From positions 1 through 40,200 of IMG/VR virus record IMGVR_UViG_3300034965_000024: a stretch of DNA of 40,200 nucleotides; one strand, written 5' to 3'. This document shows positions 7,999-21,344 of the stretch, piece by piece. The stretch's first letter is position 1. Each line of letters begins with the position of its first letter. The notes beneath the pieces are model-generated. The model ran no database searches. It worked only from the letters and a program-made list of their open reading frames with translations, and was not told the origin of the DNA. This stretch comes from a virus (taxonomy: Duplodnaviria; Caudoviricetes). Made by a program: the position numbers and the translations under genes.

Positions 7999-8471
7999 GC
8001 TGTTTTCCCTTTGTTAAAGTAAGCGGTTTGCCATTTCTCTAATCGATCAGCTAAATCTTTCTTGGTTTGATCGCCAATCTTGTAGGACTTCCCAAACGCC
8101 TCTATAGGCACCCAGGAGTTAGGCAGCTCGTACAGGTATCGACCCACCCCCCAAAGCACCGCAGCGCGCTTTAGAGCGTCGGAGAAGGCCCCTTTCTCAG
8201 CTTCTACGTCCGTCTCGCCGCATCCATTCGCTTTATAGACCCACTCCGACTCTATCTTGATACCGATCTCGCATACCAAGCGCTTACCATCGGACCAAGG
8301 GTATCGAGCTGACCAGACAGCAGCGCCGCAGACGCTATCAAGGCGGCCCATAACATCGCGAGCATCTAAATAAGCCAAAGCAATACCTTTGGTCTTATCC
8401 TGCGTTGTAGCGCCTACGCGCCAGCTTATTTGCTTGGCTGGAAATGGTAATGAGAGATCAGTAAGGATCAC
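7995..8471 (-). CDS. Rad52/Rad22-family single-strand annealing protein (Sak-like)
   Basis: LAYLDARDVMGRLD and EAEKGAFSDALKRAAVLWGVGRYLY signatures. Confidence 0.92.
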   Translation of the reverse strand: MILTDLSLPFPAKQISWRVGATTQDKTKGIALAYLDARDVMGRLDSVCGAAVWSARYPWSDGKRLVCEIGIKIESEWVYKANGCGETDVEAEKGAFSDALKRAAVLWGVGRYLYELPNSWVPIEAFGKSYKIGDQTKKDLADRLEKWQTAYFNKGKTA

Positions 8472-8634
8472 GGCTTAACTCCTCTGCAAAGACAATTTTT
8501 TGGCCTTCTGAAATGCAGATGGAGCGCTCATAACTATAGAGTGGGTAGTCTTTAAATTTATCGATCCGGCCTTCTTCGCGCCATGCCATACGCACTTCAA
8601 AGCGGAGTTGTGATTCTGTCTTAGGTAATTCCAT
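8458..8634 (-). CDS. 58-aa hypothetical protein (MELPKTESQLRF...), not in ORF track
   Basis: Hand translation; GGAGCACTA RBS; overlaps the Rad52-like start. Confidence 0.7.
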   Translation of the reverse strand: MELPKTESQLRFEVRMAWREEGRIDKFKDYPLYSYERSICISEGQKIVFAEELSRDPY

Positions 8635-8646
8635 TCTAGTGCTCCA

Positions 8647-8826
8647 TCATCTTTGTGGTAAGTTTTGAATATCTTCAGCCAGTTCTTCGGCAGTAACTTG
8701 CAGAATTTCTAGAAGCGCTCTAGCCTCTTTTTCATCAAAAAGACCAAGCTCTATTTTTGTATTGTCGGCAATAACAACAACATCTATAAATCTCGAATTT
8801 CGCTTTATCTTAAAACTAAGGCTCAT
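8647..8826 (-). CDS. 59-aa hypothetical protein (MSLSFKIKRNSRF...), not in ORF track
   Basis: Hand translation; AAGGAGCACTA RBS. Confidence 0.7.
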   Translation of the reverse strand: MSLSFKIKRNSRFIDVVVIADNTKIELGLFDEKEARALLEILQVTAEELAEDIQNLPQR

Positions 8827-8895
8827 GTTTAGTGCTCCTTCATCATTAAGGCTTAATTGTAGTGCTCAACAGAGCGGTTGGATAATAGTATTTAT

Positions 8896-9102
8896 TTATC
8901 GGTTGCGCTCGATTGTTCGATATTCGCTAACATGCTCCCCGCTAACAAAAACAACCTCGCCGCGAATCACTCGCTCAGCATGCGCCTTTGCTTCTCTGAA
9001 ATTTCTTCCGCCGCACTCACAGCCATTACTCAGAACAAATACGTTAGTGCCGTACTTTTCTTTGTAGAGCGGTATTGTTGGGTGGTAGGTTAGTTGATTC
9101 AT
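8896..9102 (-). CDS. Hypothetical protein
   Basis: AGGAG RBS; overlaps the upstream stop. Confidence 0.65.
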   Translation of the reverse strand: MNQLTYHPTIPLYKEKYGTNVFVLSNGCECGGRNFREAKAHAERVIRGEVVFVSGEHVSEYRTIERNR

Positions 9103-9338
9103 TTGTTGCGCTCCTTTAGCATAATATCAGCAGCTTGAAATGCGATACTTGCGCGCCAAGAAAGGTCAGAAGGGATATCGTTTGTGATTGTGTCGCACCA
9201 ATCTTGCTGAGCCATTAATGTAGCCATTGCCTTCGCCGCAAAATAATCGCGCAATGACATGCCCTCTGAATTATCTAGTTGCAAGCCGTTCTCGCCGACA
9301 ATGGGAAACGCGGAACCACCATGATCTTCACTCATCAC
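9099..9338 (-). CDS. Conserved phage protein (GMSLRDYFAAKAM family)
   Basis: GGSAFP...GMSLRDYFAAKAM...ADIML motif. Confidence 0.85.
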   Translation of the reverse strand: MMSEDHGGSAFPIVGENGLQLDNSEGMSLRDYFAAKAMATLMAQQDWCDTITNDIPSDLSWRASIAFQAADIMLKERNK

Positions 9339-9412
9339 TCACACCGTCACACAAACACAAAGAACATAACCAAACCAAGCGCCGAATGCTGCCGTTGCTA
9401 GAATGGAGCGGA

Positions 9413-9715
9413 TCATCGAACACCGCTCCTGAGCAATGTATTATTGAGTACCATTAGTGCGCTCTCAGGACGGTTGCCGCGTAAATGAGCGCGCGTATCT
9501 TGCAGCGCCTGTAAAAACTCATCAGCCTTTTCAGCCTTAGCCCACTTATCCCGCAATATAGACTCAAGCCCTGGCGGTATTCCGCAGTTATCGATGTACA
9601 GGCTTAATGCATCTTTGCTGACTTTATCGGTCAGGATCGGCGGTATATCGTGCTGTGCCAAGAGATTGTTGGTTGAATCAAGAATGCATGCCGTTAAAAT
9701 TCCTTTAGTATCCAT
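9413..9715 (-). CDS. Hypothetical protein
   Basis: ORF track; fits the operon tiling. Confidence 0.65.
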   Translation of the reverse strand: MDTKGILTACILDSTNNLLAQHDIPPILTDKVSKDALSLYIDNCGIPPGLESILRDKWAKAEKADEFLQALQDTRAHLRGNRPESALMVLNNTLLRSGVR

Positions 9716-9717
9716 GA

Positions 9718-9909
9718 TTAACCCACCTGCTCATTCGTCAAAGCCCCAGCACTCAGCAAAGGACAGCCATCGTCTCGATTCTCGTCATAGGCCATATCAG
9801 GATCGATCTTGCGCTTGTACTTGCGCACGCGGTCGCCTAGGCCTAGCGCTTCATATTCATCCGCTGCGCCGGACTCCATTCTGCTCGGTATGTCGTGAGG
9901 ATCTTGCAT
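9718..9909 (-). CDS. Hypothetical acidic protein
   Basis: ORF track; TAATG coupling; DPDMAYDENRDD motif. Confidence 0.65.
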   Translation of the reverse strand: MQDPHDIPSRMESGAADEYEALGLGDRVRKYKRKIDPDMAYDENRDDGCPLLSAGALTNEQVG

Positions 9910-10088
9910 TACAGCAATCCTTTTTGCTGAACCAAGCCAAGCTTGCGCTTAAGATAGCGCTCTATTTTCTTCGTAGCTGCTTCGCAATCCTTATCGACCT
10001 GCTCATAGCTGACCGACCATCCATTGAAATAGCCAACCTCTCTACGTATCAGCTTGGCGATGTGTTTTCTTTCTCTCTCGGTCAGCAT
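9909..10088 (-). CDS. First gene of the leftward early operon (MLTERERK...)
   Basis: Start moved to ATG 10088 behind AAGGAG. Confidence 0.65.
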   Translation of the reverse strand: MLTERERKHIAKLIRREVGYFNGWSVSYEQVDKDCEAATKKIERYLKRKLGLVQQKGLL

Positions 10089-10171
10089 ATTAGCTCCTTC
10101 GTTAAAAAAGCCCCACCACAAACAACGGGGCTATGTTACTGCACGACGTAAGCCTGGATGGCTACAACTCA

Positions 10172-10235
10172 ATATTAAATTAGCAACTTGGTTGCGTCAA
10201 GTAATTTGACAAATATATTTATGATCGGCTAGAAT
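10172..10235. promoter_or_regulatory. Back-to-back sigma70-like early promoters (PL/PR) with operator-like palindromes
   Basis: Minus strand: TTGACG(10200-10195)-17-TAATAT(10177-10172). Plus strand: TTGACA(10206)-18-TAGAAT(10230). Palindromes GTCAA-N5-TTGAC and GCAAC-N3-GTTGC. Confidence 0.75.
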
Positions 10236-10260
10236 CAACCCTACCAAATAGGAGTAACCA

Positions 10261-10455
10261 ATGAAAAGAGAGAAGGTAATTAAATATTTTGCTAAATGGT
10301 ACCCAAGTTTAGCCCCGGAGGTAGCGACTGCCAAAGCACTTGGGATAAGCAGGCAGGCTGTTAATGCGTGGGATGATGATGTACCAAAAACTAGCCAAGC
10401 TCTTATAGAGCTTTTGTCCAAAGGCGATATTAAGCGGGATAAGGCAAATGGATAG
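10261..10455 (+). CDS. cro: Cro-like HTH regulator
   Basis: VIKYF...TAKALGISRQAVNAW..VP; first rightward gene. Confidence 0.88.
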   Translation: MKREKVIKYFAKWYPSLAPEVATAKALGISRQAVNAWDDDVPKTSQALIELLSKGDIKRDKANG

Positions 10456-10858
10456 ATGCTCAGTTTGCGGTATAGATTTGATTGCAAAAACCAACAGATT
10501 TTGCGGAGAGTTTTATTGTTTTGTTCATAGGAAAGAAAAACGAGCAGAACTTAAAAGCCAGGCGCACATTAATCATAATCAGATTTCCAGAAATCTTACT
10601 GTTTCTGCGGTTAGATATGGATTCCTTCTGCCGGCTAGCGATTTTTATTGTGTTGACTGTGGAATAAGGGCGGAAAATTATGACCATAGAGACTATAACA
10701 AGCCGCTTGATGTAGTCCCGGTATGCCGATCATGCAATATGAAGAGGTGGAAAGGTATTCCGGCTACAACCCCATATATAGGGGAGGGCTGGATAAAAGT
10801 AACAGAGCAAAAAGCAAGCATCAAAAAGGCCAAGGCAGATAGCAAGGGGAAAAAATAA
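10448..10858 (+). CDS. Zn-binding HNH-like protein
   Basis: CVDCG...YDHRDYNKPLDVVPVCRSCN; N-terminal CxxC. Confidence 0.7.
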   Translation: MDRCSVCGIDLIAKTNRFCGEFYCFVHRKEKRAELKSQAHINHNQISRNLTVSAVRYGFLLPASDFYCVDCGIRAENYDHRDYNKPLDVVPVCRSCNMKRWKGIPATTPYIGEGWIKVTEQKASIKKAKADSKGKK

Positions 10859-11073
10859 TGGAGCAGTCGCATATAATTCAAACAGTTAAAGCGCTTTGCG
10901 ATGCTGGAAAGTACGACGAGGCAATCGAGTTAACAAATCATGTCGCAAACAAAGCAATAGCTGTAAATACACATCTATTATGTATGGAGCATGAGGAGAG
11001 GAGACGCCTAGATGCTTACCCCGCAAGACCGCTATACAAAGATTTTCGAAAGGCGTCGAGAGGCTGTTCTTGA
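10858..11073 (+). CDS. Hypothetical protein
   Basis: TAATG coupling. Confidence 0.65.
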   Translation: MEQSHIIQTVKALCDAGKYDEAIELTNHVANKAIAVNTHLLCMEHEERRRLDAYPARPLYKDFRKASRGCS

Positions 11074-11224
11074 CCATAACTATGACCCCTATGGCAACTC
11101 ATTTAGCACATACAATATCGAGCAAATGAAGCGCGATGCGGATAATTTAAATCTAGCCAAGTGGATCGCCATTGTCTTTATCTTGGGCTGCGCGGCTATT
11201 ACGGCTTATTGCGTGAGGTTTGTA

Positions 11225-11445
11225 TGAGCAAGAAAATCTGCAAGGACTGTAAATGGGTAAAGCATTATCCCGGTAAATTTGACTGGCCGTGGTCTTATTG
11301 TCCTGAGCAGTTTATCTGCAATCATCCCGACACAATTAATCTCGTTACCGGAGAGATGAGCAGAAGCTCAGAATCTATGCGCTCGCCAAGCAGTCTATGC
11401 AAGCCAGAGGCTTTGCTATTTGAGCCTATGAGGGTGGAATCGTGA
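11225..11445 (+). CDS. Cys-rich hypothetical protein (MSKKICKDCKW...)
   Basis: GAGG RBS; CxxC...CNHP...CKPEA. Confidence 0.65.
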
Positions 11446-11629
11446 ACGAATGGAATGATGATCCTTTCTTTCGACTGCCTACGAAAATATATCTGTGTGG
11501 CTGTCCTGATCATGATGGGCGAATACAGCACGGCCCTTATTGTCCTTGGGGTCAGACTACGCTTAGGAATCGAGCGCAAGGCTTTGATATACCGCCTAAC
11601 CAATTAGCCAGCCCCGAGAGGAAGTGGCT

Positions 11630-11836
11630 ATGAATACTTTTATCGCATCAATAACAGATACCACCCTTCCTCTACCCACTGAGCCGCCATGCTTAAGATG
11701 CAAATGGTGGAAACCTGAAAGGAAATATGCTCATTGCAGTGGCGAGGTGGGTCAACATTTTGTTGGATCGAGGTTGTGCTGGTCCGAAAACCAATATCAC
11801 GACTTTACTTGTTTTTCTCAGATCACGCAGCCCTAG
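11630..11836 (+). CDS. Cys-rich hypothetical protein
   Basis: ORF track; GAGG RBS. Confidence 0.55.
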   Translation: MNTFIASITDTTLPLPTEPPCLRCKWWKPERKYAHCSGEVGQHFVGSRLCWSENQYHDFTCFSQITQP

Positions 11837-11850
11837 GGCATAGAGGAAGT

Positions 11851-12078
11851 ATGGAATGGAACGAATTGAGCAAAGCAACCCTAGAGGCAATGGAGGTCAT
11901 CGGCAATTACGGCCCGACCGCCAACCCAGAGGGGCGCACAGTCAAAGGCTACACATGGGATGCCGACGATGGCTGCGGCGGTCAATGTTATTTGGATAGC
12001 CGCGATCTGCGAGAAATTGCCGTAGCGTGTATCGAGGTAGCAGACTGGCTAGATAAGCGCGCCGAGGAATCTATTTAA
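11851..12078 (+). CDS. Hypothetical acidic protein (MEWNELSK...)
   Basis: Start moved behind GAGG RBS. Confidence 0.65.
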   Translation: MEWNELSKATLEAMEVIGNYGPTANPEGRTVKGYTWDADDGCGGQCYLDSRDLREIAVACIEVADWLDKRAEESI

Positions 12079-12180
12079 ACCCCACAGAATCGCTTTACAG
12101 CCCGATTAGGCGCAAACCAATGGCAGAGTGAGGGTATGCTATAAAATCGATTCTAGGCGAGCATGGGCTAAGTAGTGAGG

Positions 12181-12286
12181 TTTGCGATAACTCCTTCGAG
12201 CGTCCGGGCATTTTCAGTCATCCTGACACCTATACGCTGATTTCACCTTACGAGGGTTACTTTGGTTCGGTTGCTCTATTATCGCA
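12181..12286 (-). ncRNA. Candidate ~105-nt trans-acting sRNA with a three-way junction (C4/CI-like logic)
   Basis: Own promoter; closing stem UGCGAUAA/UUAUCGCA; two internal hairpins; junction segments complementary to the leader at 12368-12386. Confidence 0.6.
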
Positions 12287-12291
12287 CCCCA

Positions 12292-12354
12292 ATTATACCC
12301 TCCCCTAGTCTTTTTTCAATCTGTGCTTGCTTTATGGTGATAGGCTGGTAGAAT
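12292..12354. promoter_or_regulatory. Second pair of divergent sigma70-like promoters
   Basis: Minus strand: TTGAAA(12319-12314)-16-TATAAT(12297-12292). Plus strand: TTGCTT(12327)-16-TAGAAT(12349) with extended TGn. Confidence 0.72.
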
Positions 12355-12360
12355 TTTAAG

Positions 12361-12487
12361 TGCGTGGCTTTGGTCGGCCTATACGCATTCCACGAAAGAG
12401 CTTTGTCTCATGCCGCCTTGTGCCGGCTCACCTCAGTGGGGGTGAGCAGGATGACCACACAAGAAGGCAGCAGACAGAGCTTTTTTT
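12361..12487 (+). ncRNA. Structured leader / attenuator of the replication operon
   Basis: Hairpin 12361-12387 with loop UUUGGUCG; long interrupted hairpin 12395-12485 ending in U7; loop UGGUC is complementary to bulged GACCA (12453-12457). Confidence 0.75.
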
Positions 12488-12823
12488 ATGCCTTGGATTT
12501 CTATAAATTACTTAGAAAATAAGTTGAACATGCCAAAGATATCCTGTTGTTACGTTATTTATTTCAATGGGATTATGAAATACATAGGATCGACTAGCGA
12601 TCTTAGAAATAGGTTTTCTGGCCGCATTATTCGATATGGTTATGCAAGAAATATCCATACTCCTTGGGGTGACTTCCCCGATGACATTAATTTAACAATC
12701 AAATATAAACCATCCAAACGACATGGCGACTGGCTAATGCTAGAAGCCAGGTTGATCAGAAAACTACAGCCGATATTTAATACCCGATTGAAAGGAAGAA
12801 GAAATGCACTTCTATCCGCATAA
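12488..12823 (+). CDS. GIY-YIG nuclease-family protein
   Basis: CYVIYFNGIMKYIGSTSDLRNRF...LEARLIRKLQPIFN. Confidence 0.85.
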   Translation: MPWISINYLENKLNMPKISCCYVIYFNGIMKYIGSTSDLRNRFSGRIIRYGYARNIHTPWGDFPDDINLTIKYKPSKRHGDWLMLEARLIRKLQPIFNTRLKGRRNALLSA

Positions 12824-13598
12824 TATTGGTGATTTTAATAATTCTACCAGGCATTTAACACGTGTTGAACGCAGCGTATACAGAGATGCAATAGAGCGTT
12901 ATTACGATACTGAGAGCCCTCTTCCTGCTAATGATATTGAGCGCCTTTACCGAGTACTTTTATGCTCAACAGACGATGAAAAGAGAGCGTTAAACACTGT
13001 TCTCGGTGAATTCTTTACTGTTGTTGATGGGGCATATAGGCATGATAGATGTGATCTTGAGATAGAAAAATATCGATCTAATTCAAGCGCTAAGGCTAGA
13101 GCAGGAAAGGCCTCAGCAGAAGCTAGAAAGAACAAATCACAACATACGAATAACACTAGTTCAACATGTGTTGAACAAAATAATAAACAAGAACCAATAA
13201 CCAATAACCATAAACCATTAACCAATATAACTACTGACGCACAGCAAGCTGGCGTCGAAGCGAAGGCGAGGCGCAAATGTCGATTACCCGCTGACTTCCT
13301 GATTACCGATGATCGAAGGCAAATAGCCCTGGGATACTGGAAAACCAAAAACCGCTTCGATCTCAATCCTGATGACGAATTTCAGAAGTTCACGAATTAC
13401 CACTTGTCCAATGGCAAGCCCATGCTGGATTGGGAGGCCTGCTGGCGGACTTGGTATACCAATGCGGTCGGATTCAATCGACCGCTGAATAGCGCTTCCC
13501 ATAATCAACCTAAGACGATCGAGCAAACCGGAAATGAGATTGCAGAGCGATCGGCAAGGATTAAGGCAACCTTACAGAAAAATGGGGCATTCTCATGA
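12804..13598 (+). CDS. Replication initiator, DUF1376/YdaU family
   Basis: MHFYPHNIGDF...HLTRVERSVYRDAIERYY N-domain; low-complexity linker; RLPADF...DWEACWRTW C-domain. Confidence 0.88.
   Translation: MHFYPHNIGDFNNSTRHLTRVERSVYRDAIERYYDTESPLPANDIERLYRVLLCSTDDEKRALNTVLGEFFTVVDGAYRHDRCDLEIEKYRSNSSAKARAGKASAEARKNKSQHTNNTSSTCVEQNNKQEPITNNHKPLTNITTDAQQAGVEAKARRKCRLPADFLITDDRRQIALGYWKTKNRFDLNPDDEFQKFTNYHLSNGKPMLDWEACWRTWYTNAVGFNRPLNSASHNQPKTIEQTGNEIAERSARIKATLQKNGAFS
13152..13226. other. Candidate replication origin inside the initiator gene
   Basis: Palindrome GTTCAACA-TG-TGTTGAAC (13159-13176), followed by five tandem AACCA(A/T)(T/A) heptamers (13192-13226). Confidence 0.55.
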
Positions 13599-14191
13599 AT
13601 ATCGCTGATATGGATAATTTTAATTCCAAGTGGATGGCCGTTCATGAGGTTTATAACAAGCAAATTTCAGATGCAGCTATTGCGCTGGCCTTTCAGGTGC
13701 TATCTAAATTCGAATGGAGCGATATTAGTCGAGCGCTAGATTCGCATTTGCTTGATGCCGATGCTGGCCGATTTCCGCCGAAGCCTGCGGATATTGCGAA
13801 GTATATTACGGGCGATCCAGAAAGCCGCCCCCTGGAGGCGTGGACAAAGGTTGTAACTGCTATTTCTCGGCAAGGACCCTATCGAACTATCGTTTTTGAC
13901 GATTCGGTAATTATGGCGGTGGTGCGCGATCTAGGCGGCTGGGTTGAGCTGTGCAAAATCGATGACAAAGAGCTTCCGTTTAAGCGCAACGAATTTGCTA
14001 CGCGCTATCGCGGTTATATGCTCACGCCGCCACAAGCATGGCCGAAATTATTGCAAGGCCTGAGCCCAACCGATTCGCCGATATTGATTGGTAATCAGGA
14101 AAAAGCCGAACAAGTTTTATTGACCGGCAAAAAAGATAGTGGTCCGCAAATGCGTTCCGTTTCTCAATTACTAGAACATATGAAAGTTTAA
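13595..14191 (+). CDS. DUF6475-family replication accessory protein (P/loader position)
   Basis: GRFPPKPADI, AWTKV...GPYRTIVFDD, LGGWVELC, F..RYRGY. Confidence 0.8.
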   Translation: MNIADMDNFNSKWMAVHEVYNKQISDAAIALAFQVLSKFEWSDISRALDSHLLDADAGRFPPKPADIAKYITGDPESRPLEAWTKVVTAISRQGPYRTIVFDDSVIMAVVRDLGGWVELCKIDDKELPFKRNEFATRYRGYMLTPPQAWPKLLQGLSPTDSPILIGNQEKAEQVLLTGKKDSGPQMRSVSQLLEHMKV

Positions 14192-14235
14192 CCCATCCAC
14201 CCCTGTCCGCAGGGCAAGACTAGAGGCAGTAGGAA

Positions 14236-14460
14236 ATGATTGCTCATGATTTTAGTTGGGGTCAGCTTGAAGCTTTAAGGAAATTAGAAAATGCCTTCAA
14301 AGTCTGCGAGGAAATGCATTTGGTATTTTGTGGCATCGAGAATGGATTGGTAGTCTGCATCGATTCTGATAATGCCAGGAAATTAGCCTGCGAATGGCTA
14401 GTTACTAACTCTATTCGAGTCAATACCGGTAAGTGTTATTTGGATTCTGGCTGCGGATAA
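14236..14460 (+). CDS. Hypothetical protein
   Basis: RBS and ORF track. Confidence 0.6.
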   Translation: MIAHDFSWGQLEALRKLENAFKVCEEMHLVFCGIENGLVVCIDSDNARKLACEWLVTNSIRVNTGKCYLDSGCG

Positions 14461-14550
14461 AAGCTATCAACTCAGCCTAAACGATTAATAAATCCAATTA
14501 GCCATCGGTGCAGTAGGGCGCTAGAGTTAGGCAACATCAACGAGAGGAGT

Positions 14551-14745
14551 GTGGGAGTGGAACATTATGAGTTTTCACAGATATTAAAATATCCAAGCAA
14601 GGATTCAGTTGTTGGTGGGCTCATGAAATGTGATGCGGTTATCGCTAGGAAGATAGAGGAGCGCGCTAAGTTACAGCAAGAAATTGATGATATTCGCGCG
14701 CGCCGTGATCAATTAATCGCTATTAATGCCACCATCCCCCAGTAG
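14551..14745 (+). CDS. Hypothetical coiled-coil protein
   Basis: GAGGAG RBS. Confidence 0.6.
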   Translation: MGVEHYEFSQILKYPSKDSVVGGLMKCDAVIARKIEERAKLQQEIDDIRARRDQLIAINATIPQ

Positions 14746-14768
14746 CCACTGATTGACCGGAGAAGAGA

Positions 14769-15014
14769 ATGGATTGGCAACCTATCGAAACAGCGCCTAG
14801 TGATGTTTTAGTTGTAGTTGGTTGGCTAGATGAATACGGCGAAGTTTGTACCGTTTTTGATTGTATGGATGAAGGGGGGTGGATGCAGCACAACGACCAT
14901 TATGAACATTATTGCATGGTTGCTAAGGGGGGTGGCGATGATATTTCATGGCATGGCCCTAGCGAGAAAGCGCCATATACTCATTGGCTTAAAATTCCGG
15001 AATTTCCTAAATGA
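14769..15014 (+). CDS. DUF551-family protein
   Basis: WQPIETAP...YTHWLKIPEFPK. Confidence 0.85.
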   Translation: MDWQPIETAPSDVLVVVGWLDEYGEVCTVFDCMDEGGWMQHNDHYEHYCMVAKGGGDDISWHGPSEKAPYTHWLKIPEFPK

Positions 15015-15256
15015 CCCTCTCCCGCAACCACAAAATCGGCGATCAGGTCATAGGCCTACGCTTAGCCATGATGAATCTCGGTCTTGAGGGCTATGAGGTC
15101 TTGGAGACCCATACCAAGGCCAGCAACGAGCAGGCCAGTATCCTTATCGACCGTCCGTATGTGTGTGAGGATGCGCAGATGCAGGATGTAGCGAATAAGC
15201 GCTTTGGGTTTTGTGTTCGGTGGGGAGCGCGGGTTTATTGGGAGTGCAAAGAATGA
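15011..15256 (+). CDS. Hypothetical protein
   Basis: 4-bp overlap with the upstream gene. Confidence 0.65.
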   Translation: MTLSRNHKIGDQVIGLRLAMMNLGLEGYEVLETHTKASNEQASILIDRPYVCEDAQMQDVANKRFGFCVRWGARVYWECKE

Positions 15257-15480
15257 ATTATGAGTCCATGCCATTCGACTGGAATGCACCAGATGCAGAG
15301 TTTGATTTTTGTTGCCTATGCGGTGGGAAAATATGGATTTATTATTGGCGCGAGCATATGAATATTCATAATGTAGTTTTAAAGGAATCGCCAAAAAATG
15401 AGGACGGCACATGGAAGCATCAAGATGAATATGTTTATGATGACGATAGCCAAACCCTAAAAACAACCGACAACGTATAA
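15253..15480 (+). CDS. Hypothetical protein (MNYESMPF...)
   Basis: ATGA coupling; GGGAG RBS. Confidence 0.6.
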   Translation: MNYESMPFDWNAPDAEFDFCCLCGGKIWIYYWREHMNIHNVVLKESPKNEDGTWKHQDEYVYDDDSQTLKTTDNV

Positions 15481-15554
15481 ATTAATAAAATTATCCTGTC
15501 GATATCGACTAATCTATAGTTACACCATAGAAACGCAAACAGGGGTAGGACGAA

Positions 15555-15692
15555 ATGGAAGACGATAACGAAATGTATCCGGAAGTCTCTATTCATGATG
15601 AGCCTTGGTCGTTGCATCGCTCGCTTGGCTTCGATGATGCCGACGAATTTAACAATTATTGCGACGAGTTTGAGCGCGGCTGCGATGCTTAA
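15555..15692 (+). CDS. 45-aa highly acidic protein, not in ORF track
   Basis: Hand translation MEDDNEMYPEVSIHDEPWSLHRSLGFDDADEFNNYCDEFERGCDA; AGGA RBS. Confidence 0.65.
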   Translation: MEDDNEMYPEVSIHDEPWSLHRSLGFDDADEFNNYCDEFERGCDA

Positions 15693-15867
15693 GCTGCAAA
15701 CGGCACGCAAGAAACATGTTTGCACCATCTGCGGCGAAGAAATACCAGTTGGGTCGAAGTATTGGCGCGAATATGAGCTTGGCGGCGACGATGGCGCATT
15801 AATGGATCGCAAAGAACACACATCCTGCCCTGAGCAGCGAATTACCGCCAATGGCGATGACGCCTAA
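15685..15867 (+). CDS. Small Zn-finger protein
   Basis: ARKKHVCTICGEEIPVGSKY...HTSC. Confidence 0.7.
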   Translation: MLKLQTARKKHVCTICGEEIPVGSKYWREYELGGDDGALMDRKEHTSCPEQRITANGDDA

Positions 15868-15895
15868 CCCCGCTCACTACTGAGGAGTAAACGAA

Positions 15896-16123
15896 ATGGA
15901 CAAGGCACAAGCACATCGCGATTGGGCGAAAAAGCAATACGAGAAGTTGTGCCCGGTGCAAAATGCAACTGCAAAAAATATCATCGATGCGGTTGTTGTT
16001 GAGTTCAAGGCAAACGGCAGCAAAGCTGCGACGGCCAAATTTAACACTTTAGCGGCTGAGCATAAATTGCAACGCTGGGTAGCGGTGGCCTTGACGGACA
16101 CGATCCGAGGCCTCGTTCTTTAA
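15896..16123 (+). CDS. Hypothetical protein
   Basis: GAGGAG RBS. Confidence 0.7.
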   Translation: MDKAQAHRDWAKKQYEKLCPVQNATAKNIIDAVVVEFKANGSKAATAKFNTLAAEHKLQRWVAVALTDTIRGLVL

Positions 16124-16190
16124 TGCCTTTGCCTAACCACCCCGCGCCCGGTGCGCATGACTAACTATTTTTAATCAACGAGGAAAAGCA

Positions 16191-16514
16191 ATGAGCATTG
16201 ATAATTTAACCATCGGTGAAGCAAAGGAATTGGCTGCGATGTTTGGCAGTTGCGATAAACGCGTCCATCCATTTACCGGGCAGAACGTGATTGTTGCATT
16301 GCCGCATGGCTTTGTGTTTTTCGGCATCTTGCAAGGTGACATGACTCTGACCAAGGCGAGCAATATCCGGCAGTGGGCCACACGCAGCGGAGGCCTTCCA
16401 GAGTTCGCAAAATCTGGCCCTATCGCTGGCGACAAAATAGACGCACTGCCCGGCAAGGTCGATGTATCTAAGTATTTATTTATCTACCAAGCCGGTGAGT
16501 GGAATGAGCGGTAA
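16191..16514 (+). CDS. DUF6948-like protein
   Basis: IDNLTIGEAKELAAMF...VIV...GFVFFG.L...LTKASNIRQW...GL.EFA..GP; adjacent to a Gly-rich gene. Confidence 0.7.
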   Translation: MSIDNLTIGEAKELAAMFGSCDKRVHPFTGQNVIVALPHGFVFFGILQGDMTLTKASNIRQWATRSGGLPEFAKSGPIAGDKIDALPGKVDVSKYLFIYQAGEWNER

Positions 16515-16680
16515 GGGCTACGGCTCCGGCTACGGCTACGGCGACGGCTCCGGCTACGGCTCCGGCTCCGGCTCCGGCTACGGCTCCGGCTACGGCTACG
16601 GCGACGGCTCCGGCTACGGCTCCGGCGACGGCTCCGGCTACGGCGACGGCTCCGGCTACGGCGACGGCTCGATTGATTAA
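16504..16680 (+). CDS. 58-aa Gly-X repeat protein (GYGSGYGYGDG...)
   Basis: Tandem GGC-(TAC/TCC/GAC) hexamers; ATG overlaps the end of the upstream gene. Confidence 0.8.
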   Translation: MSGKGYGSGYGYGDGSGYGSGSGSGYGSGYGYGDGSGYGSGDGSGYGDGSGYGDGSID

Positions 16681-16727
16681 CCTAAAGCGCCGCCAACACG
16701 GGGCACCTAACCCATGAGGGCAGTGAG

Positions 16728-16895
16728 ATGGAAAACAAAGTTTTGGAAGATATCAAAAATTATGCAATCAATAAGCTAAAGCAGAATTTCGGCTATTGTG
16801 GTGCGGCAGAGGGCGCTAATTCAGTATTTATAAATTCCGGTTCTGATGGCAGAAATATTACCATTAAGATAGACATTGAAGAAGTTGCCGGCTAG
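16728..16895 (+). CDS. 55-aa hypothetical protein (MENKVLEDIK...), not in ORF track
   Basis: Hand translation; GAGG RBS. Confidence 0.65.
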   Translation: MENKVLEDIKNYAINKLKQNFGYCGAAEGANSVFINSGSDGRNITIKIDIEEVAG

Positions 16896-16920
16896 TCCCC
16901 GCTAGGACTACGTATCCGCA

Positions 16921-17141
16921 TGCCCCTTGCGTCAGCTGCATTCTGGCGTTGCATGCAGGCAAAAGCTAGGAACCACTGTCGTGGGCTTCATAAGCAATAG
17001 GGGGCAGTCGAATGCGGTGATGGCGTAGTTAGTGCGCCGTGTTGCTTGACGTACACCGACCCTGAGGCCAAGACCCCAGCAGCAAGGGGAATAGTCAAGC
17101 ATGGCCAAGATTGGCAGCCGAGTCGTAATCGGCCACCGCAG
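16921..17141 (+). ncRNA. Candidate structured ncRNA: multibranch domain plus tRNA-like cloverleaf
   Basis: ORF-free gap with many nested stems; TGCGGTG/CACCGCA acceptor-like stem and 5-bp/7-nt T-like arm. Confidence 0.6.
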
Positions 17142-17163
17142 ACCTAATTAACTTGGAGTAAGC

Positions 17164-17340
17164 ATGATCACAAATGTCGCCGCCCTAAAGTTCAGAACCG
17201 ACACAAACGCCTCGGTCAATCTGAATTACATCACGCCAGAAATGGCCTATTCGCAGCTGGCCCAAGCATCGAGCATCGAGCAGCTAGAGGCCGCTATCGC
17301 GATATTTAACCGTGAATTGGAGAGGCAGAATGGACAATGA
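17164..17340 (+). CDS. 58-aa hypothetical protein (MITNVAALKF...), not in ORF track
   Basis: Hand translation; GGAG RBS. Confidence 0.65.
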   Translation: MITNVAALKFRTDTNASVNLNYITPEMAYSQLAQASSIEQLEAAIAIFNRELERQNGQ

Positions 17341-17539
17341 TTTTATTCCGTTCCAGTTAAAAGCAGCTTCAATCGCCGATCTCGCCTTACACTTCGATGG
17401 TGACATACCCAAACCGGGCGATAAGGTCGAGCTATTCTGTTATGAGCGCGGCGAGTTTTTCGTTAACCTGAAATGGCGCGTAGTGCAGGAGGAAAAATCG
17501 AATGAAAATAAGAGAGTTGGAGAGATTGAAAGTCGATGA
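17330..17539 (+). CDS. Hypothetical protein
   Basis: GGAGAGG RBS; coupled to the next gene. Confidence 0.55.
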   Translation: MDNDFIPFQLKAASIADLALHFDGDIPKPGDKVELFCYERGEFFVNLKWRVVQEEKSNENKRVGEIESR

Positions 17540-17748
17540 GTGAATATAACGACTATGATATTGATCACATTAACCAGATACAGGAAATAAAAAACGAAGT
17601 TGGGGTGCAAGGAATTTTTGAAATGACGCTGATGGCGTTGACAAATATACACGACGAAGGGCTTACGTTAGGGCAGGCCTGGACGCTAATGGATGCTTGT
17701 TTGCAGGATTTTAAGCCACCAAAATCTGGGGTGAAGGTCGATGAGTGA
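17536..17748 (+). CDS. Hypothetical acidic protein
   Basis: ATGA coupling. Confidence 0.65.
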   Translation: MSEYNDYDIDHINQIQEIKNEVGVQGIFEMTLMALTNIHDEGLTLGQAWTLMDACLQDFKPPKSGVKVDE

Positions 17749-17911
17749 GCAAACAAATGATATTTTCCAGCTAACCGCTGCTGGTCTTTTTGCCTTTGAC
17801 GGCGAAATCCCAATTGAAGAACTTTACCAAGCCTTCAAGAAGCGAATGATCACGGAAATCTATATCACTATGGAGCGTGGCAAGCTTGTAATTGAGGATG
17901 TTGACGCATGA
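17741..17911 (+). CDS. 56-aa hypothetical protein (MSEQTNDIF...), not in ORF track
   Basis: Hand translation; overlaps both neighbours. Confidence 0.6.
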   Translation: MSEQTNDIFQLTAAGLFAFDGEIPIEELYQAFKKRMITEIYITMERGKLVIEDVDA

Positions 17912-18501
17912 CTCACTCCGATAGCCTCCGCAAGTTAACGAATACCCTGATCGAGGTTAAGGCGCCAATTAACGCAGAGCTAGGCAAGCAAAAAGCCGAA
18001 TACTTTGCAAGGGGTGGTACGGTTACGGAGTTACCTAATAAGCTCGGAACCCCAAGGCCTATTGCTATTCGGCCAATAAAGTTTCAGATCGTGGAGGATG
18101 AGGTCATACCGGGTATTATTTGGGGCGATGAAGAAATCGAAGCCACTCGCTATATGAAAGCCTTGGGACAAAGTAATGCTGCCGTCGCATTGGCATTAAA
18201 TGCCTATTTCGGCAATAGTCGGACAGCCTTCGCAGTTAAACGACTTTGCGCTAAGCAGAAAATCTATCGTGCCGCTGCACCAAGGAAACCTTCACCGCTC
18301 AAGGGTCACCCATCTCGCGGCCCTAACGGTTATACGATAGCGGAGGATAAGGCGCTCCAGGCCCTCACAGAAGAAGGTCTTACGGTAGATAAGATAGTCA
18401 TCCGCATGAAGAAGATGTTCGGCAAGGATCGTACCGATAGCGGCCTTAGAGGTCGTTGTAAGCGATTAGGATTGCAAATAAACCGTATTACTTATGGCTG
18501 A
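17908..18501 (+). CDS. Putative transcription regulator with two GcrA/Myb-like HTH repeats
   Basis: WGDEEIEA...G.SNAAVA..L...RT..AV and YTIAEDKAL...G.T...I...RTDSGL repeats; N-terminal EYFARGGTV motif. Confidence 0.55.
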   Translation: MTHSDSLRKLTNTLIEVKAPINAELGKQKAEYFARGGTVTELPNKLGTPRPIAIRPIKFQIVEDEVIPGIIWGDEEIEATRYMKALGQSNAAVALALNAYFGNSRTAFAVKRLCAKQKIYRAAAPRKPSPLKGHPSRGPNGYTIAEDKALQALTEEGLTVDKIVIRMKKMFGKDRTDSGLRGRCKRLGLQINRITYG

Positions 18502-18838
18502 ATTGGGTAGAAATCTTAGCCAGAATGCCCTTCTTCATGCCCTATGTGGAGATGTGGCTAACCAAAAGCAATGGGCTGGGCAGAAAATAGATTGCGAGGG
18601 ATGGAAGCGATTATTTGTGGATTCATGGGCTAGAGAAACAGGTCGATCTCCAGGAAAAGTTGTTCCATCATTAGATGGTGAATCAGTTGTAGTATTAAAT
18701 ATATCTACAAGAAAGCTAATAAAAAAAGACTTTGCTGAGCTTATAACCTGGATTTTGGCATATTGTGATATGAATGATATTCGCTTAAATGCACCTGAAA
18801 ATTATTTGGAGTATCGGGAGGCGGTAAATGGTCAATAA
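18494..18838 (+). CDS. ninB: NinB/Orf-family recombination protein
   Basis: RNLSQNALLHAL..DVA.Q..W.G...WKRLF...VVPSLDG...STRKL.K.DFAELI. Confidence 0.9.
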   Translation: MAELGRNLSQNALLHALCGDVANQKQWAGQKIDCEGWKRLFVDSWARETGRSPGKVVPSLDGESVVVLNISTRKLIKKDFAELITWILAYCDMNDIRLNAPENYLEYREAVNGQ

Positions 18839-19475
18839 GACGAACCTTGTAGGTCGGCGTTTTGGAAGGTTAGTTATTGTTGAATATTCTCATAAAGTTA
18901 GGCATCAAACATATTGGAAGGGATTATGTGATTGCGGCAGAATTGCCGTTACCAGAATTGATGGATTGAATAGTGGGCGATGCAGTTCATGTGGCTGTCT
19001 TCGGAAAGAGCGTGCTAGTGCAGCTACCAAAAAAAGATTAACCACTCACGGAAAAACAGTAGGCGGAGTTCAAAGAATTTATAGAATATGGAGGAATATG
19101 ATAAATCGATGCCATAATAAAAATGTGGAGGCATATAAAAATTATGGCGCAAGAGGAATAATAGTTTGTGATCGATGGAAAGATTTTTCTGCATTCCTTT
19201 TAGATATGGGCGAGCCAGCATTGCATATGACTCTAGACAGAATAAATAATGATGACGGATACAATAAGGGAAATTGTCGATGGGCAACCAGAAAGGAACA
19301 GAGTAATAATACTAGGCAGAATAGGAAGATAACAATTAATGGCATGACAATGAATATATCGCAATGGGCTGAGCATCCAAATGCTGTTGATGCAAGTTTA
19401 ATTTCTTGTCGTCTGGGGCGTGGATGGGATGCAGAAAAAGCGGTTTTCAAAGATAGAAGAATTCGTAATGCCTAA
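18828..19475 (+). CDS. HNH homing endonuclease-like protein
   Basis: GRRFGRL, CDCG, SCGC, YGARGI.VC.RW, TLDRINND.GY...NCRWAT. Confidence 0.88.
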   Translation: MVNKTNLVGRRFGRLVIVEYSHKVRHQTYWKGLCDCGRIAVTRIDGLNSGRCSSCGCLRKERASAATKKRLTTHGKTVGGVQRIYRIWRNMINRCHNKNVEAYKNYGARGIIVCDRWKDFSAFLLDMGEPALHMTLDRINNDDGYNKGNCRWATRKEQSNNTRQNRKITINGMTMNISQWAEHPNAVDASLISCRLGRGWDAEKAVFKDRRIRNA

Positions 19476-20052
19476 ATGCGGCCACTGTAAAGAACAAACA
19501 ACTAACCGTTATGGCCTAACTGCCGCCTGTAATCCAGAGCACGCCATAGCCATAGCCATCACCAGAGCCAAGCAGGCGAAGAAAGACGCAAAACAGCTAC
19601 GCGAGGATAAAGCTAGGATTAAAACGCGCCAGCAGTGGCGCAAGGAGGCAGGAGAGGCCTTTAGGGCATATATCCGCGAGAGAGATCGTGGTAGAACTTG
19701 TATTTGTTGTGGGTCATTTGGCAAAGATGAGGATTGGATAACTGGAGGGAAATGGGATGCAGGGCATTTCCTTAGTGTTGGCTCGCATCCTGAGTTAGAG
19801 TTTGAGCCGCTCAATTGTCATTTACAGCTAAAAACTTGTAATTCAGGATCTGGGAAATTCGGTAAATTTCACGGTAATGAGCGCATAGTGTCTGCTAGAT
19901 ATAAAATTGGTCTTATTGCCCGAATTGGATTCGATAAGGTCGAATGGCTAGAAGGGCCTCACGAACCAAATAAATACGGTATCCCTGAGTTACAAGCCAT
20001 AAAGGCCAAATATACCAAGATGCGCAGAGAGTTGGAAAAAGAACGGCTTTGA
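19468..20052 (+). CDS. ninG: NinG/Rap-family junction endonuclease
   Basis: F.AYIRERD...CICCG...WDAGHFLSVGSHPEL.F...NCH.Q...CN...VEWLEGPH. Confidence 0.92.
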   Translation: MPKCGHCKEQTTNRYGLTAACNPEHAIAIAITRAKQAKKDAKQLREDKARIKTRQQWRKEAGEAFRAYIRERDRGRTCICCGSFGKDEDWITGGKWDAGHFLSVGSHPELEFEPLNCHLQLKTCNSGSGKFGKFHGNERIVSARYKIGLIARIGFDKVEWLEGPHEPNKYGIPELQAIKAKYTKMRRELEKERL

Positions 20053-20084
20053 TATAGCATAATAGCGATTTCGGAGCGCTCAGC

Positions 20085-20351
20085 ATGGCTGCTAAATACC
20101 CTGACTGGTCAGCCTATATCATCATAAACTGTAATGGCCAAACGACAGTTGACGGCGGAATTACAGCAACCAACCATAGAGACTGCCTGACGTGGTGCGC
20201 TCGAAAAGAGGGTTGCCAAGTGTCTCAAGGCAATCAGCGCTGGACGCTGGAAGAATTTAACAAGTACCTGATAGATTCCGATGGCTGTATCGACCGCAAA
20301 GACATGAAGCTTTTAGACCTGATTGTGGATAGCTGCGGCCTGATCGACTGA
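20085..20351 (+). CDS. Hypothetical protein
   Basis: GGAG RBS; ORF track. Confidence 0.65.
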   Translation: MAAKYPDWSAYIIINCNGQTTVDGGITATNHRDCLTWCARKEGCQVSQGNQRWTLEEFNKYLIDSDGCIDRKDMKLLDLIVDSCGLID

Positions 20352-20416
20352 GTGCTACCACACAGACTTGTCACATGACGCTGTTATAATTACCGGAAAC
20401 CAACCGGGTCAGCGCC

Positions 20417-20692
20417 ATGAAAATCAACGTCTACCACCATTTCGATGACCCTACGCTCTGCCAAATCCTCAAGGAGATGCACACCATGGCTGTTAATCTT
20501 GATCGCCTGACTACCGAAGTATCTGAAAATACCACTGTCATCGAAAGCGCTATTACCCTGATTGACGGCTTGCGCCAAGCTATCATCGATGCCGGCGCCG
20601 ATCCTGTAAAACTGGGCGAGCTGGCCGATAAGCTGGATTCCCAAAGTAACCGACTGGCCGCTGCTGTCGCCGATAATACCCCTGCTGCCTAA
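20417..20692 (+). CDS. Conserved coiled-coil phage protein
   Basis: LTTEVSENTTVIESAITLIDGL...LAAAVADNTP; possible internal start behind AAGGAG. Confidence 0.75.
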   Translation: MKINVYHHFDDPTLCQILKEMHTMAVNLDRLTTEVSENTTVIESAITLIDGLRQAIIDAGADPVKLGELADKLDSQSNRLAAAVADNTPAA

Positions 20693-20710
20693 TGGTTCCG
20701 CGTGGAACGT

Positions 20711-20734
20711 GCCTCCGCCCCCTGGAGGCTTTTT
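20711..20734 (+). terminator. Intrinsic terminator
   Basis: GCCTCC-N7-GGAGGC-TTTTT. Confidence 0.8.
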
Positions 20735-20799
20735 ATCGCTTGAAAGCTCAGCCATAATTATCTAAACTATCAATTCCATTCATTATTTGGGGGCAGGAT

Positions 20800-20877
20800 A
20801 TGATCGAATTGAACGGTGTAGGTGGCGGATCGAAACCCGATAAGCCAAAATCTAAGCCGCGCCCTAAGCCCTGTTAA
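20800..20877 (+). CDS. 25-aa peptide MIELNGVGGGSKPDKPKSKPRPKPC, not in ORF track
   Basis: GGGGCAGGA upstream; TAATG coupling to the membrane-protein gene. Confidence 0.55.
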   Translation: MIELNGVGGGSKPDKPKSKPRPKPC

Positions 20878-21344
20878 TGTCCTCCTACCACTTTTTTCTC
20901 CTAACCCTGCTCTGTATCGGTGGGGCTTTGAATCTCTACCAGCCAAGAGTGCTAACGCTGGTATTCGTTACCGCCCTGTTCTTATTATTTCTGAGCAGCC
21001 TTATCCCCCCCGCTAATGTCCTGCAAAACACCTGGTTCAAGGTATTAATTCAGTCTGAAGCCTTTTTTGCTGCCTGTGCACTGTTAAGTTTTTCGACAGC
21101 AGGCCGTATAGTCGCTGCTTTCTGCTTGTGGAACATTGCGAGTCATGTTTTAGGATGGGTATCGTTCGTACACGACTATCCTGCCTACACGCTGTATAGT
21201 CCCTTAATCCGAGCCGGTGAGGTGTGTCAGGCATTAGCGCTAATTCTGTTCTCCCAACCGATTATTAACCTCGCCGTGTGGTTTCGGACAAAAGACAGGA
21301 GTACGGACGATGAGTGGCATCGACTGGAGCACGGTACTCGCTAA
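20877..21344 (+). CDS. Polytopic membrane protein (about 5 TM)
   Basis: Multiple hydrophobic segments. Confidence 0.8.
   Translation: MSSYHFFLLTLLCIGGALNLYQPRVLTLVFVTALFLLFLSSLIPPANVLQNTWFKVLIQSEAFFAACALLSFSTAGRIVAAFCLWNIASHVLGWVSFVHDYPAYTLYSPLIRAGEVCQALALILFSQPIINLAVWFRTKDRSTDDEWHRLEHGTR

Follow-up and report, generated by a model that had tools for sequence, protein, structure and literature searches.

A two-part pairing code in the leader of a phage replication operon and a candidate divergent antisense RNA complementary to it

Here, we describe a structured leader in front of a phage replication operon, and a candidate small RNA (sRNA) gene that diverges from it. We consider it rather probable that the GIY-YIG-DUF1376-DUF6475 operon is preceded by an attenuator leader, which the predicted divergent sRNA would switch off through pairing with two leader elements, X and Y. 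As judged from sequence, the features are real and the leader class is well supported, while the sRNA partner is plausible and represents a single instance. The strongest support is that the predicted sRNA sites fall on elements defined by covariation in other phages.

Genome context and the replication operon

The phage record, analysed over its whole 40.2 kb (hereafter the window), has direct terminal repeats and a CheckV completeness estimate of 63%, and carries P22-type head genes, an Erf-like recombinase, NinB and NinG. It encodes a 64-aa Cro (10261-10455; PF14549). The last ORF of the cro operon ends at 12078, and the studied region is the 410-bp gap from there to the GIY-YIG-like gene starting at 12488. 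A cultured Vibrio phage likewise has a Cro-only layout ahead of DUF1376, and its annotation holds no such RNA; in phage P19250A the gene preceding DUF1376 encodes a VRR-NUC protein and not Cro, and hence P19250A gives no support. Six-frame searches of the record, at its estimated completeness of 63%, found neither a tyrosine integrase (PF00589) nor an S24 repressor peptidase, with the controls positive in 14/14 and 11/14 genomes, respectively. Therefore, nothing points to a lysogenic state in need of protection, and the suggestion of the earlier note that the sRNA replaces a missing CI is unsupported. In the leftward early promoter region (10100-10200), a strong terminator (10132-10109) lies about 60 nt downstream, and no N-like antiterminator was recognised.

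The operon opens with the GIY-YIG-like endonuclease gene (12488-12823, + strand; PF01541, E 0.002, under the curated cut-off), and its start at 12488 is supported by an N-terminus in common with the GIY-YIG homolog in contig L238. It is followed by the DUF1376/YdaU replication-initiator-type gene (12804-13598, +; PF07120, E 4e-28; PHROG primosomal protein) and, third in the operon, by the DUF6475 gene (13595-14191, +; PF20081, E 3e-23). The leader may restrain the GIY-YIG-like nuclease too. The same GIY-YIG-like gene is inserted before DUF1376, with the C-terminal tail overlapping, in L238 (251-563), a second and distant contig. A DUF6475 search yielded no further locus, and two GIY-YIG relatives sit in a different context. 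Inside the DUF1376 gene, at 13180-13230, an 8-mer occurs three times together with related A/C-rich repeats, which resemble replication-origin iterons. We also considered the 12181-12487 region as a replication origin and rejected it, the iteron-like repeats sitting within the DUF1376 gene.

Two back-to-back promoters

The gap contains two back-to-back sigma70-like promoters, as the earlier note had described. The leftward one (12292-12319, - strand) reads TTGAAA-16-TATAAT, with the -35 box at 12319-12314, the -10 box at 12297-12292 and an inferred start at 12285-12287. It matches 11 of the 12 consensus positions and is tied with the cro promoter as the best of 29 sites in the 13 kb from 8000 to 21000. 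The rightward promoter (12327-12354, +; TTGCTT at 12327-12332, TG, TAGAAT at 12349-12354; predicted start 12360-12362) has an extended -10 and a weak -35 (3/6). It is readable from the sequence although it fell below the scanner's threshold, and was accepted by the looser rule of our promoter-pair survey.

The rightward leader is strongly folded and carries two predicted internal pairings

The leader (12361-12490) folds at -61.9 kcal/mol with a z-score of -5.68, and none of 200 shuffles was as good, which bears out the structured leader proposed at this position. At its 5′-end is a hairpin (12361-12387, +; -10.0 kcal/mol) with the loop at 12370-12375 and the element X at 12371-12376; the loop carries a UUGG motif which we take to be of the U-turn type. 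Then come a linker with the element Y (12388-12393, +) and a long terminator-type hairpin of 36 bp (12394-12487, +; -51.9 kcal/mol), which contains an inner hairpin, an inner loop Y′ (12436-12441), a bulge X′ (12452-12457) and a tract of seven U (12481-12487). X and X′ can form five Watson-Crick pairs and one G-U pair. Y is complementary to Y′ through four Watson-Crick and two G-U pairs (-5.5 kcal/mol); taken by itself this helix is weak and not significant, with 685 of 5,000 shuffles as good, but Y occupies the same position as the code in related leaders.

Given that the GIY-YIG start at 12488 directly follows the U-tract, the ribosome site would lie within the 3′ arm of the terminator, and the sole purine run ahead of this start codon is indeed in that arm. 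Moreover, Y and Y′ lie at opposite ends of the 36-bp rod, its foot and its tip, respectively, so that on geometric grounds the Y:Y′ helix and the finished rod should be mutually exclusive. A 23-codon ORF (12451-12522, +) starts in the bulge X′ and has no relatives among the collected loci.

Similarly built phage leaders share a covarying code

We collected 14 phage leaders of this kind, that of the window included, which we place in one class; the likeness of the window's leader to the other 13 is one of build and not of sequence homology. The shared architecture comprises a 5′ hairpin, a linker, a long hairpin with an inner loop and a bulge or junction, a U-tract and a start codon, and the downstream genes encode DUF1376 proteins, other initiator-like proteins, Rha (three leaders) or AntA (one). 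Every leader carries a two-part code, in which loop X matches bulge X′ and linker Y matches inner loop Y′, in the nested order X-Y-Y′-X′.

A single protein as query fetched 37 DUF1376 loci, and an alignment as query fetched 80 viral loci (the best of 557), 80 metagenome loci (the best of 347) and 76 genome loci; most of them had no such leader. A hairpin screen and a loop-bulge screen, the latter with 32 matches in 414 loci, led to ten leaders chosen by eye, that of the window included, and the remaining matches were discarded because they looked like coding sequence. A blastn search with one leader then recovered the same RNA in 18 Ralstonia phage and two spring-water phage records, and two leaders were added.

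Own pairing was compared with cross pairing in these 12 leaders. For both helices together, none of 100,000 permutations was as good, with boundaries that were imprecise for four leaders and corrected for the Y:Y′ test. Since X:X′ had been used in picking the leaders, Y:Y′ was tested separately. The own pairings averaged -6.1 kcal/mol against -2.0 kcal/mol for the cross pairings (0/100,000 permutations; in three leaders the Y′ window was placed manually); the corresponding fractions were 1/120 with one member per subfamily and 2/720 inside the six-member subfamily. In the alignment of this subfamily, 91% of the cells pair, eight changes are two-sided and none of 500 shuffles reached the covariation score; the alignment comprises six sequences from which the structure was itself derived, and X lies one column off in two of the six rows, which lowered the count. 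Slid registers paired in 19-53% only. A model without the code pairs gave one match in 151 genomes of one order, none in 151 of one family and one in 50 viral records, and both leaders found in this way satisfy both helices, one of them having an X identical to that of the window and a perfect 7-bp X′. The subfamily model, R3, fails to detect the window's leader.

Several further features were noted in these loci. One phage (L160) has tandem leaders with different codes, at 1700-1845 before Rha and at 2855-2990 before DUF1376, and at the second of them the end of a 19-codon ORF overlaps the DUF1376 start. In Ralstonia phage GP4 (L474:2310-2400; also L475 and L477), a leftward promoter-like site upstream of the leader would give rise to an RNA of about 50 nt, with a pyrimidine-rich anti-ribosome-site stretch, a strong terminator and no complementarity to the leader. 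A similar RNA is present at L180:2789-2846, with a weak match to RF02278 (E 0.027).

A candidate small RNA is encoded divergently from the leader

The leftward promoter would produce a predicted sRNA of about 105 nt (12183-12286, - strand), drawn as an interrupted closing stem with a multibranch loop. The closing stem pairs 12286-12278 with 12191-12183 (8 bp) and is followed by GAGC/GCUC and CCG/CGG helices under a multibranch cap. The overall fold is modest, with a z-score of -1.63 and 16 of 200 shuffles equal or better; the closing stem and the GAGC/GCUC helix of the fold put forward earlier are stable, but its two inner hairpins are weak or have alternatives. The closing stem begins at the predicted first base of the RNA, and an 8-bp stem so close to the 5′-end occurred in only 41 of 5,724 genome windows. 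No U-tract terminator follows the sRNA, and formation of its 3′-end would then depend on trimming or on Rho. No terminator was called for the cro transcript either, which may therefore run through, antisense to the sRNA. A 38-codon ORF (12211-12095, -) begins within the sRNA, with AGGA 9 nt upstream of its AUG at 12211, and has no relative among the collected loci. Between the last gene of the cro operon and the sRNA, the noncoding stretch 12080-12160 contains a 7-bp inverted repeat (12087-12093/12149-12155) and a small hairpin.

We searched widely for relatives of this RNA. Rfam, including the C4 and c4-a1b1 covariance models, gave no match at gathering score in the 40.2-kb stretch and none at E values up to 10 in 11900-12700. 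With blastn, the region 12080-12530 returned 14 of 50,697 phage records, all with short chance matches only, and neither the sRNA alone against phages nor the whole unit against plasmids found a homolog. An exact 19-mer was absent from viral contigs; a closing-stem pattern hit 119 loci, none confirmed by nhmmer, and an inner-stem pattern hit 35, all by chance. The single-sequence model R2 had no match in 84 other loci and 50 of 98 whole viral records. Five capsid relatives have neither the region nor DUF1376, and six more showed no alignment there. Five leader-bearing records, scanned with two seeds for antisense partners at a distance, contained matches at chance level only, and many of this kind are present in the window too.

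The predicted sRNA sites fall on X and Y

The two complementary boxes of the earlier note are present, with their order swapped between the copies. Box A matches 12368-12377 with 12260-12270 through an exact 7-nt core followed by one inserted base, and box B matches 12378-12386 with 12229-12237 in 9/9 positions. In addition, we found that repeat B, past a 2-nt insertion, continues into the linker (12240-12246 with 12387-12393, 6/7), which had gone unreported. When the sRNA region, which was chosen post hoc, was shuffled, nine of 20,000 trials contained both a 9-mer and, apart from it, a 7-mer matching the first 30 nt of the leader. In a survey of 213 back-to-back promoter pairs from 470 sequences (2.3 Mb), two boxes of at least 7 nt were present at a single pair, which is the 12181-12487 locus itself.

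On the sRNA, site A′ (12260-12270, -) is predicted to complement the leader loop X with its 7-nt core single-stranded; the duplex across X amounts to -16.7 kcal/mol, and opening the core costs 0.5 kcal/mol. Site B′ (12229-12246, -) is predicted to form 9-10 bp with the 3′ arm of the 5′ hairpin; beyond a bulge of 2 nt, the pairing would extend with a single mismatch into the linker Y (-19.2 kcal/mol, opening cost 3.9). Both sRNA cores together cost 4.3 kcal/mol to open, and the leader loop costs 0.0. The sRNA sites would thus cover X fully and extend into Y. Among 20,054 genome windows, the 5′-end of the leader was the second-best partner of the sRNA core (-35.9, against -36.0 for the best), while in the reciprocal scan of 8,016 windows the sRNA was outside the best ten by raw duplex energy; the case therefore rests on position and accessibility and not on raw energy.

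An alternative account is that the leader is a genuine self-contained attenuator, whether it works in cis or, by way of its terminated RNA, in trans, and that the leftward promoter and the boxes are due to chance, are a decayed local duplication or serve the 38-codon ORF. It is in keeping with this account that the 13 other leaders carry the code without such a partner (none has two matching boxes upstream), that the sRNA fold is weak and that the AGGA lies ahead of the AUG. Against this, the two swapped boxes lie in open junctions and on the code elements, and only one of the 213 promoter pairs has two such boxes; a simple duplication would not yield the swapped order, and the 38-aa ORF is without a relative in the collected loci. 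We regard this account as unlikely.

Comparison with known regulatory RNAs

Two-site antisense control is known from the temperate P1, P7, P4 and Gifsy-1, in which the RNA and its target share a transcript. The C4 antisense RNA matures via RNase P. In the account of PMC4825925, P4 CI RNA pairs with seqA and seqC and thereby causes premature termination before the replication genes. Like the P4 CI and IsrK-SeqA systems, the locus studied here combines a predicted structured RNA with short leader sites and a terminator-type hairpin with U7, and by analogy an effect on termination would be expected. However, CI is processed from the leader transcript and lies between its targets, whereas the sRNA here would have its own divergent promoter upstream of the leader, both target sites are in a single 5′ module, and there is no Rfam match; the placement of CI between seqA and seqC is echoed only in miniature, by the X′/Y′ half of the window's leader.

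As outlined in PMC8198154 and PMC12197685, c4 blocks translation of the antirepressor gene ant in the c4-icd-ant operon. The candidate sRNA is like P1 c4 (RF01695), as depicted in supplement 5 of PMC2864571, in its interrupted long stem, its two-hairpin cap and an exposed junction site facing a target hairpin loop, and like c4 and a1b1 in having two short, separated, exposed sites that are predicted to pair with the leader. It differs in strand, in having its own promoter and in its target, an operon of GIY-YIG, DUF1376 and DUF6475 rather than icd/ant.

In plasmids, following the overview in PMC8383071, Inc RNA blocks the repZ pseudoknot, and the pT181 and pIP501 RNAs induce a terminator before rep. 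Similar to IncI Inc/repZ, the predicted antisense site here is a loop with an intramolecular partner, X having X′ as its partner in cis and A′ in trans, but the IncI, pT181 and pIP501 RNAs are fully complementary countertranscripts, whereas here the RNA does not overlap its target and would use two short patches. The IncI leader peptide is coupled to the rep start. Unlike in IncI, no upstream ORF in the window ends within -12 to +4 of 12488.

The lambda OOP RNA lies just before a replication gene. Like OOP, the predicted RNA is small, leftward, next to a replication gene and under its own promoter. This raises the alternative that the leftward transcript acts as antisense into the upstream early genes, or that its promoter competes with the one 7 bp away, the repeats being perhaps protein-binding DNA. 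Place and direction agree with OOP, a cis-antisense RNA to cII in the description of its function in PMC12197685; no terminator stops the transcript, and the -35 boxes almost touch. Yet about 100 noncoding bases separate the stem end at 12183 from the nearest upstream ORF end at 12078, without overlap, and unlike OOP the RNA matches the rightward leader in trans. The repeats are neither palindromic nor symmetric around the promoters, and we judged operator sites unlikely. Neither idea accounts for the complementarity to X and Y, and we consider this alternative highly improbable.

A different RNA, the int-alpA motif (RF02996), was found directly before DUF1376 genes in three of 11 scanned loci (L012:3912-3979, L017:3912-3980 and L023:3913-3978), and similar sequence was seen by eye in L008, L009, L011, L019, L022, L024-L026, L028 and L036, so that the motif takes this place in many aquatic phages. 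This suggests a cis role of the motif in replication-gene control. It occupies the same slot as the leader of the window with a different fold and sequence, and has no match in the window. Taken together, the locus would have a functional likeness to P4 CI, P1 C4 and IncI Inc, with membership in none of these families.

Proposed mechanism

We propose the following model for the attenuator and its sRNA. In the nascent leader, X:X′ and Y:Y′ would form ahead of synthesis of the 3′ arm of the long stem. These helices would delay the terminator so that polymerase reads into the operon, and the cis code would act as a kinetic antiterminator. The two cis helices together contribute about -12 kcal/mol, and since the rod is far more stable, only kinetics could account for read-through. 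When the sRNA is present, its open junction would first contact the exposed X loop and then unzip the 5′ hairpin (-16.7 and -19.2 against -10.0 kcal/mol). With X and part of Y covered, the rod would form, transcription would stop at the U-tract and the ribosome site of the first gene would be hidden. The terminated leader, which exposes X′ and Y′, would perhaps also favour termination by covering X and Y. The role of such a circuit may be to limit or time initiator synthesis, or to block a co-infecting sibling phage, rather than to maintain lysogeny.

From topology and by analogy, we infer that the direction is off rather than on. Pairing with the opposite outcome has a precedent in IsrK, which activates in trans according to PMC4825925. 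In that case the off state would be the one in which X:X′ and Y:Y′ are formed, or A′ would bind in addition to the 5′ arm of the terminator, where 12400-12407 resembles box A; X′ overlaps the AUG at 12451, and Y′ overlaps the G-run before it. The end of the 23-codon ORF is not close to the next start, though, and an upstream ORF ending near the start codon was present in only 5 of the 14 leaders; the alternative pairing spans about 6 bp, and the rod needs no cis code to be the minimum-energy state. We think activation quite improbable. As for the C4/CI-like two-site circuit over the replication operon that was first proposed, it is still the best reading and gains support from the position of its sites on the covarying X and Y, but no homolog of the sRNA was found and the pairing is a predicted one.

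Discussion

No paper on this layout was found in the literature searched, with most subscription papers outside its scope, and the supplements of PMC2864571 and PMC5737381 may describe related motifs. A broader scenario is possible, if doubtful: in a repressor-less lambdoid phage, control of the initiator would be all-RNA, an uncatalogued, self-coded pseudoknot attenuator having acquired a separate, divergent antisense gene with no overlap. The product of this gene would read the two-part code more strongly than does the copy in the leader itself, which is partly decayed. The exact complement that read-through from the cro promoter would make could titrate the sRNA, tying shut-off or sibling exclusion to Cro.

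Whatever the role of the sRNA, the leader class is widespread and covarying, has no Rfam model in the scanned loci and merits curation. Testing the unit, with its length of about 310 bp and its changeable code, would cost little, and orthogonal RNA switches could be derived from it. If the proposed circuit is true, it would show a self-paired leader handing its code to a separate gene, and two-site antisense RNAs would time or limit lytic replication in a phage without a detectable integrase or CI.
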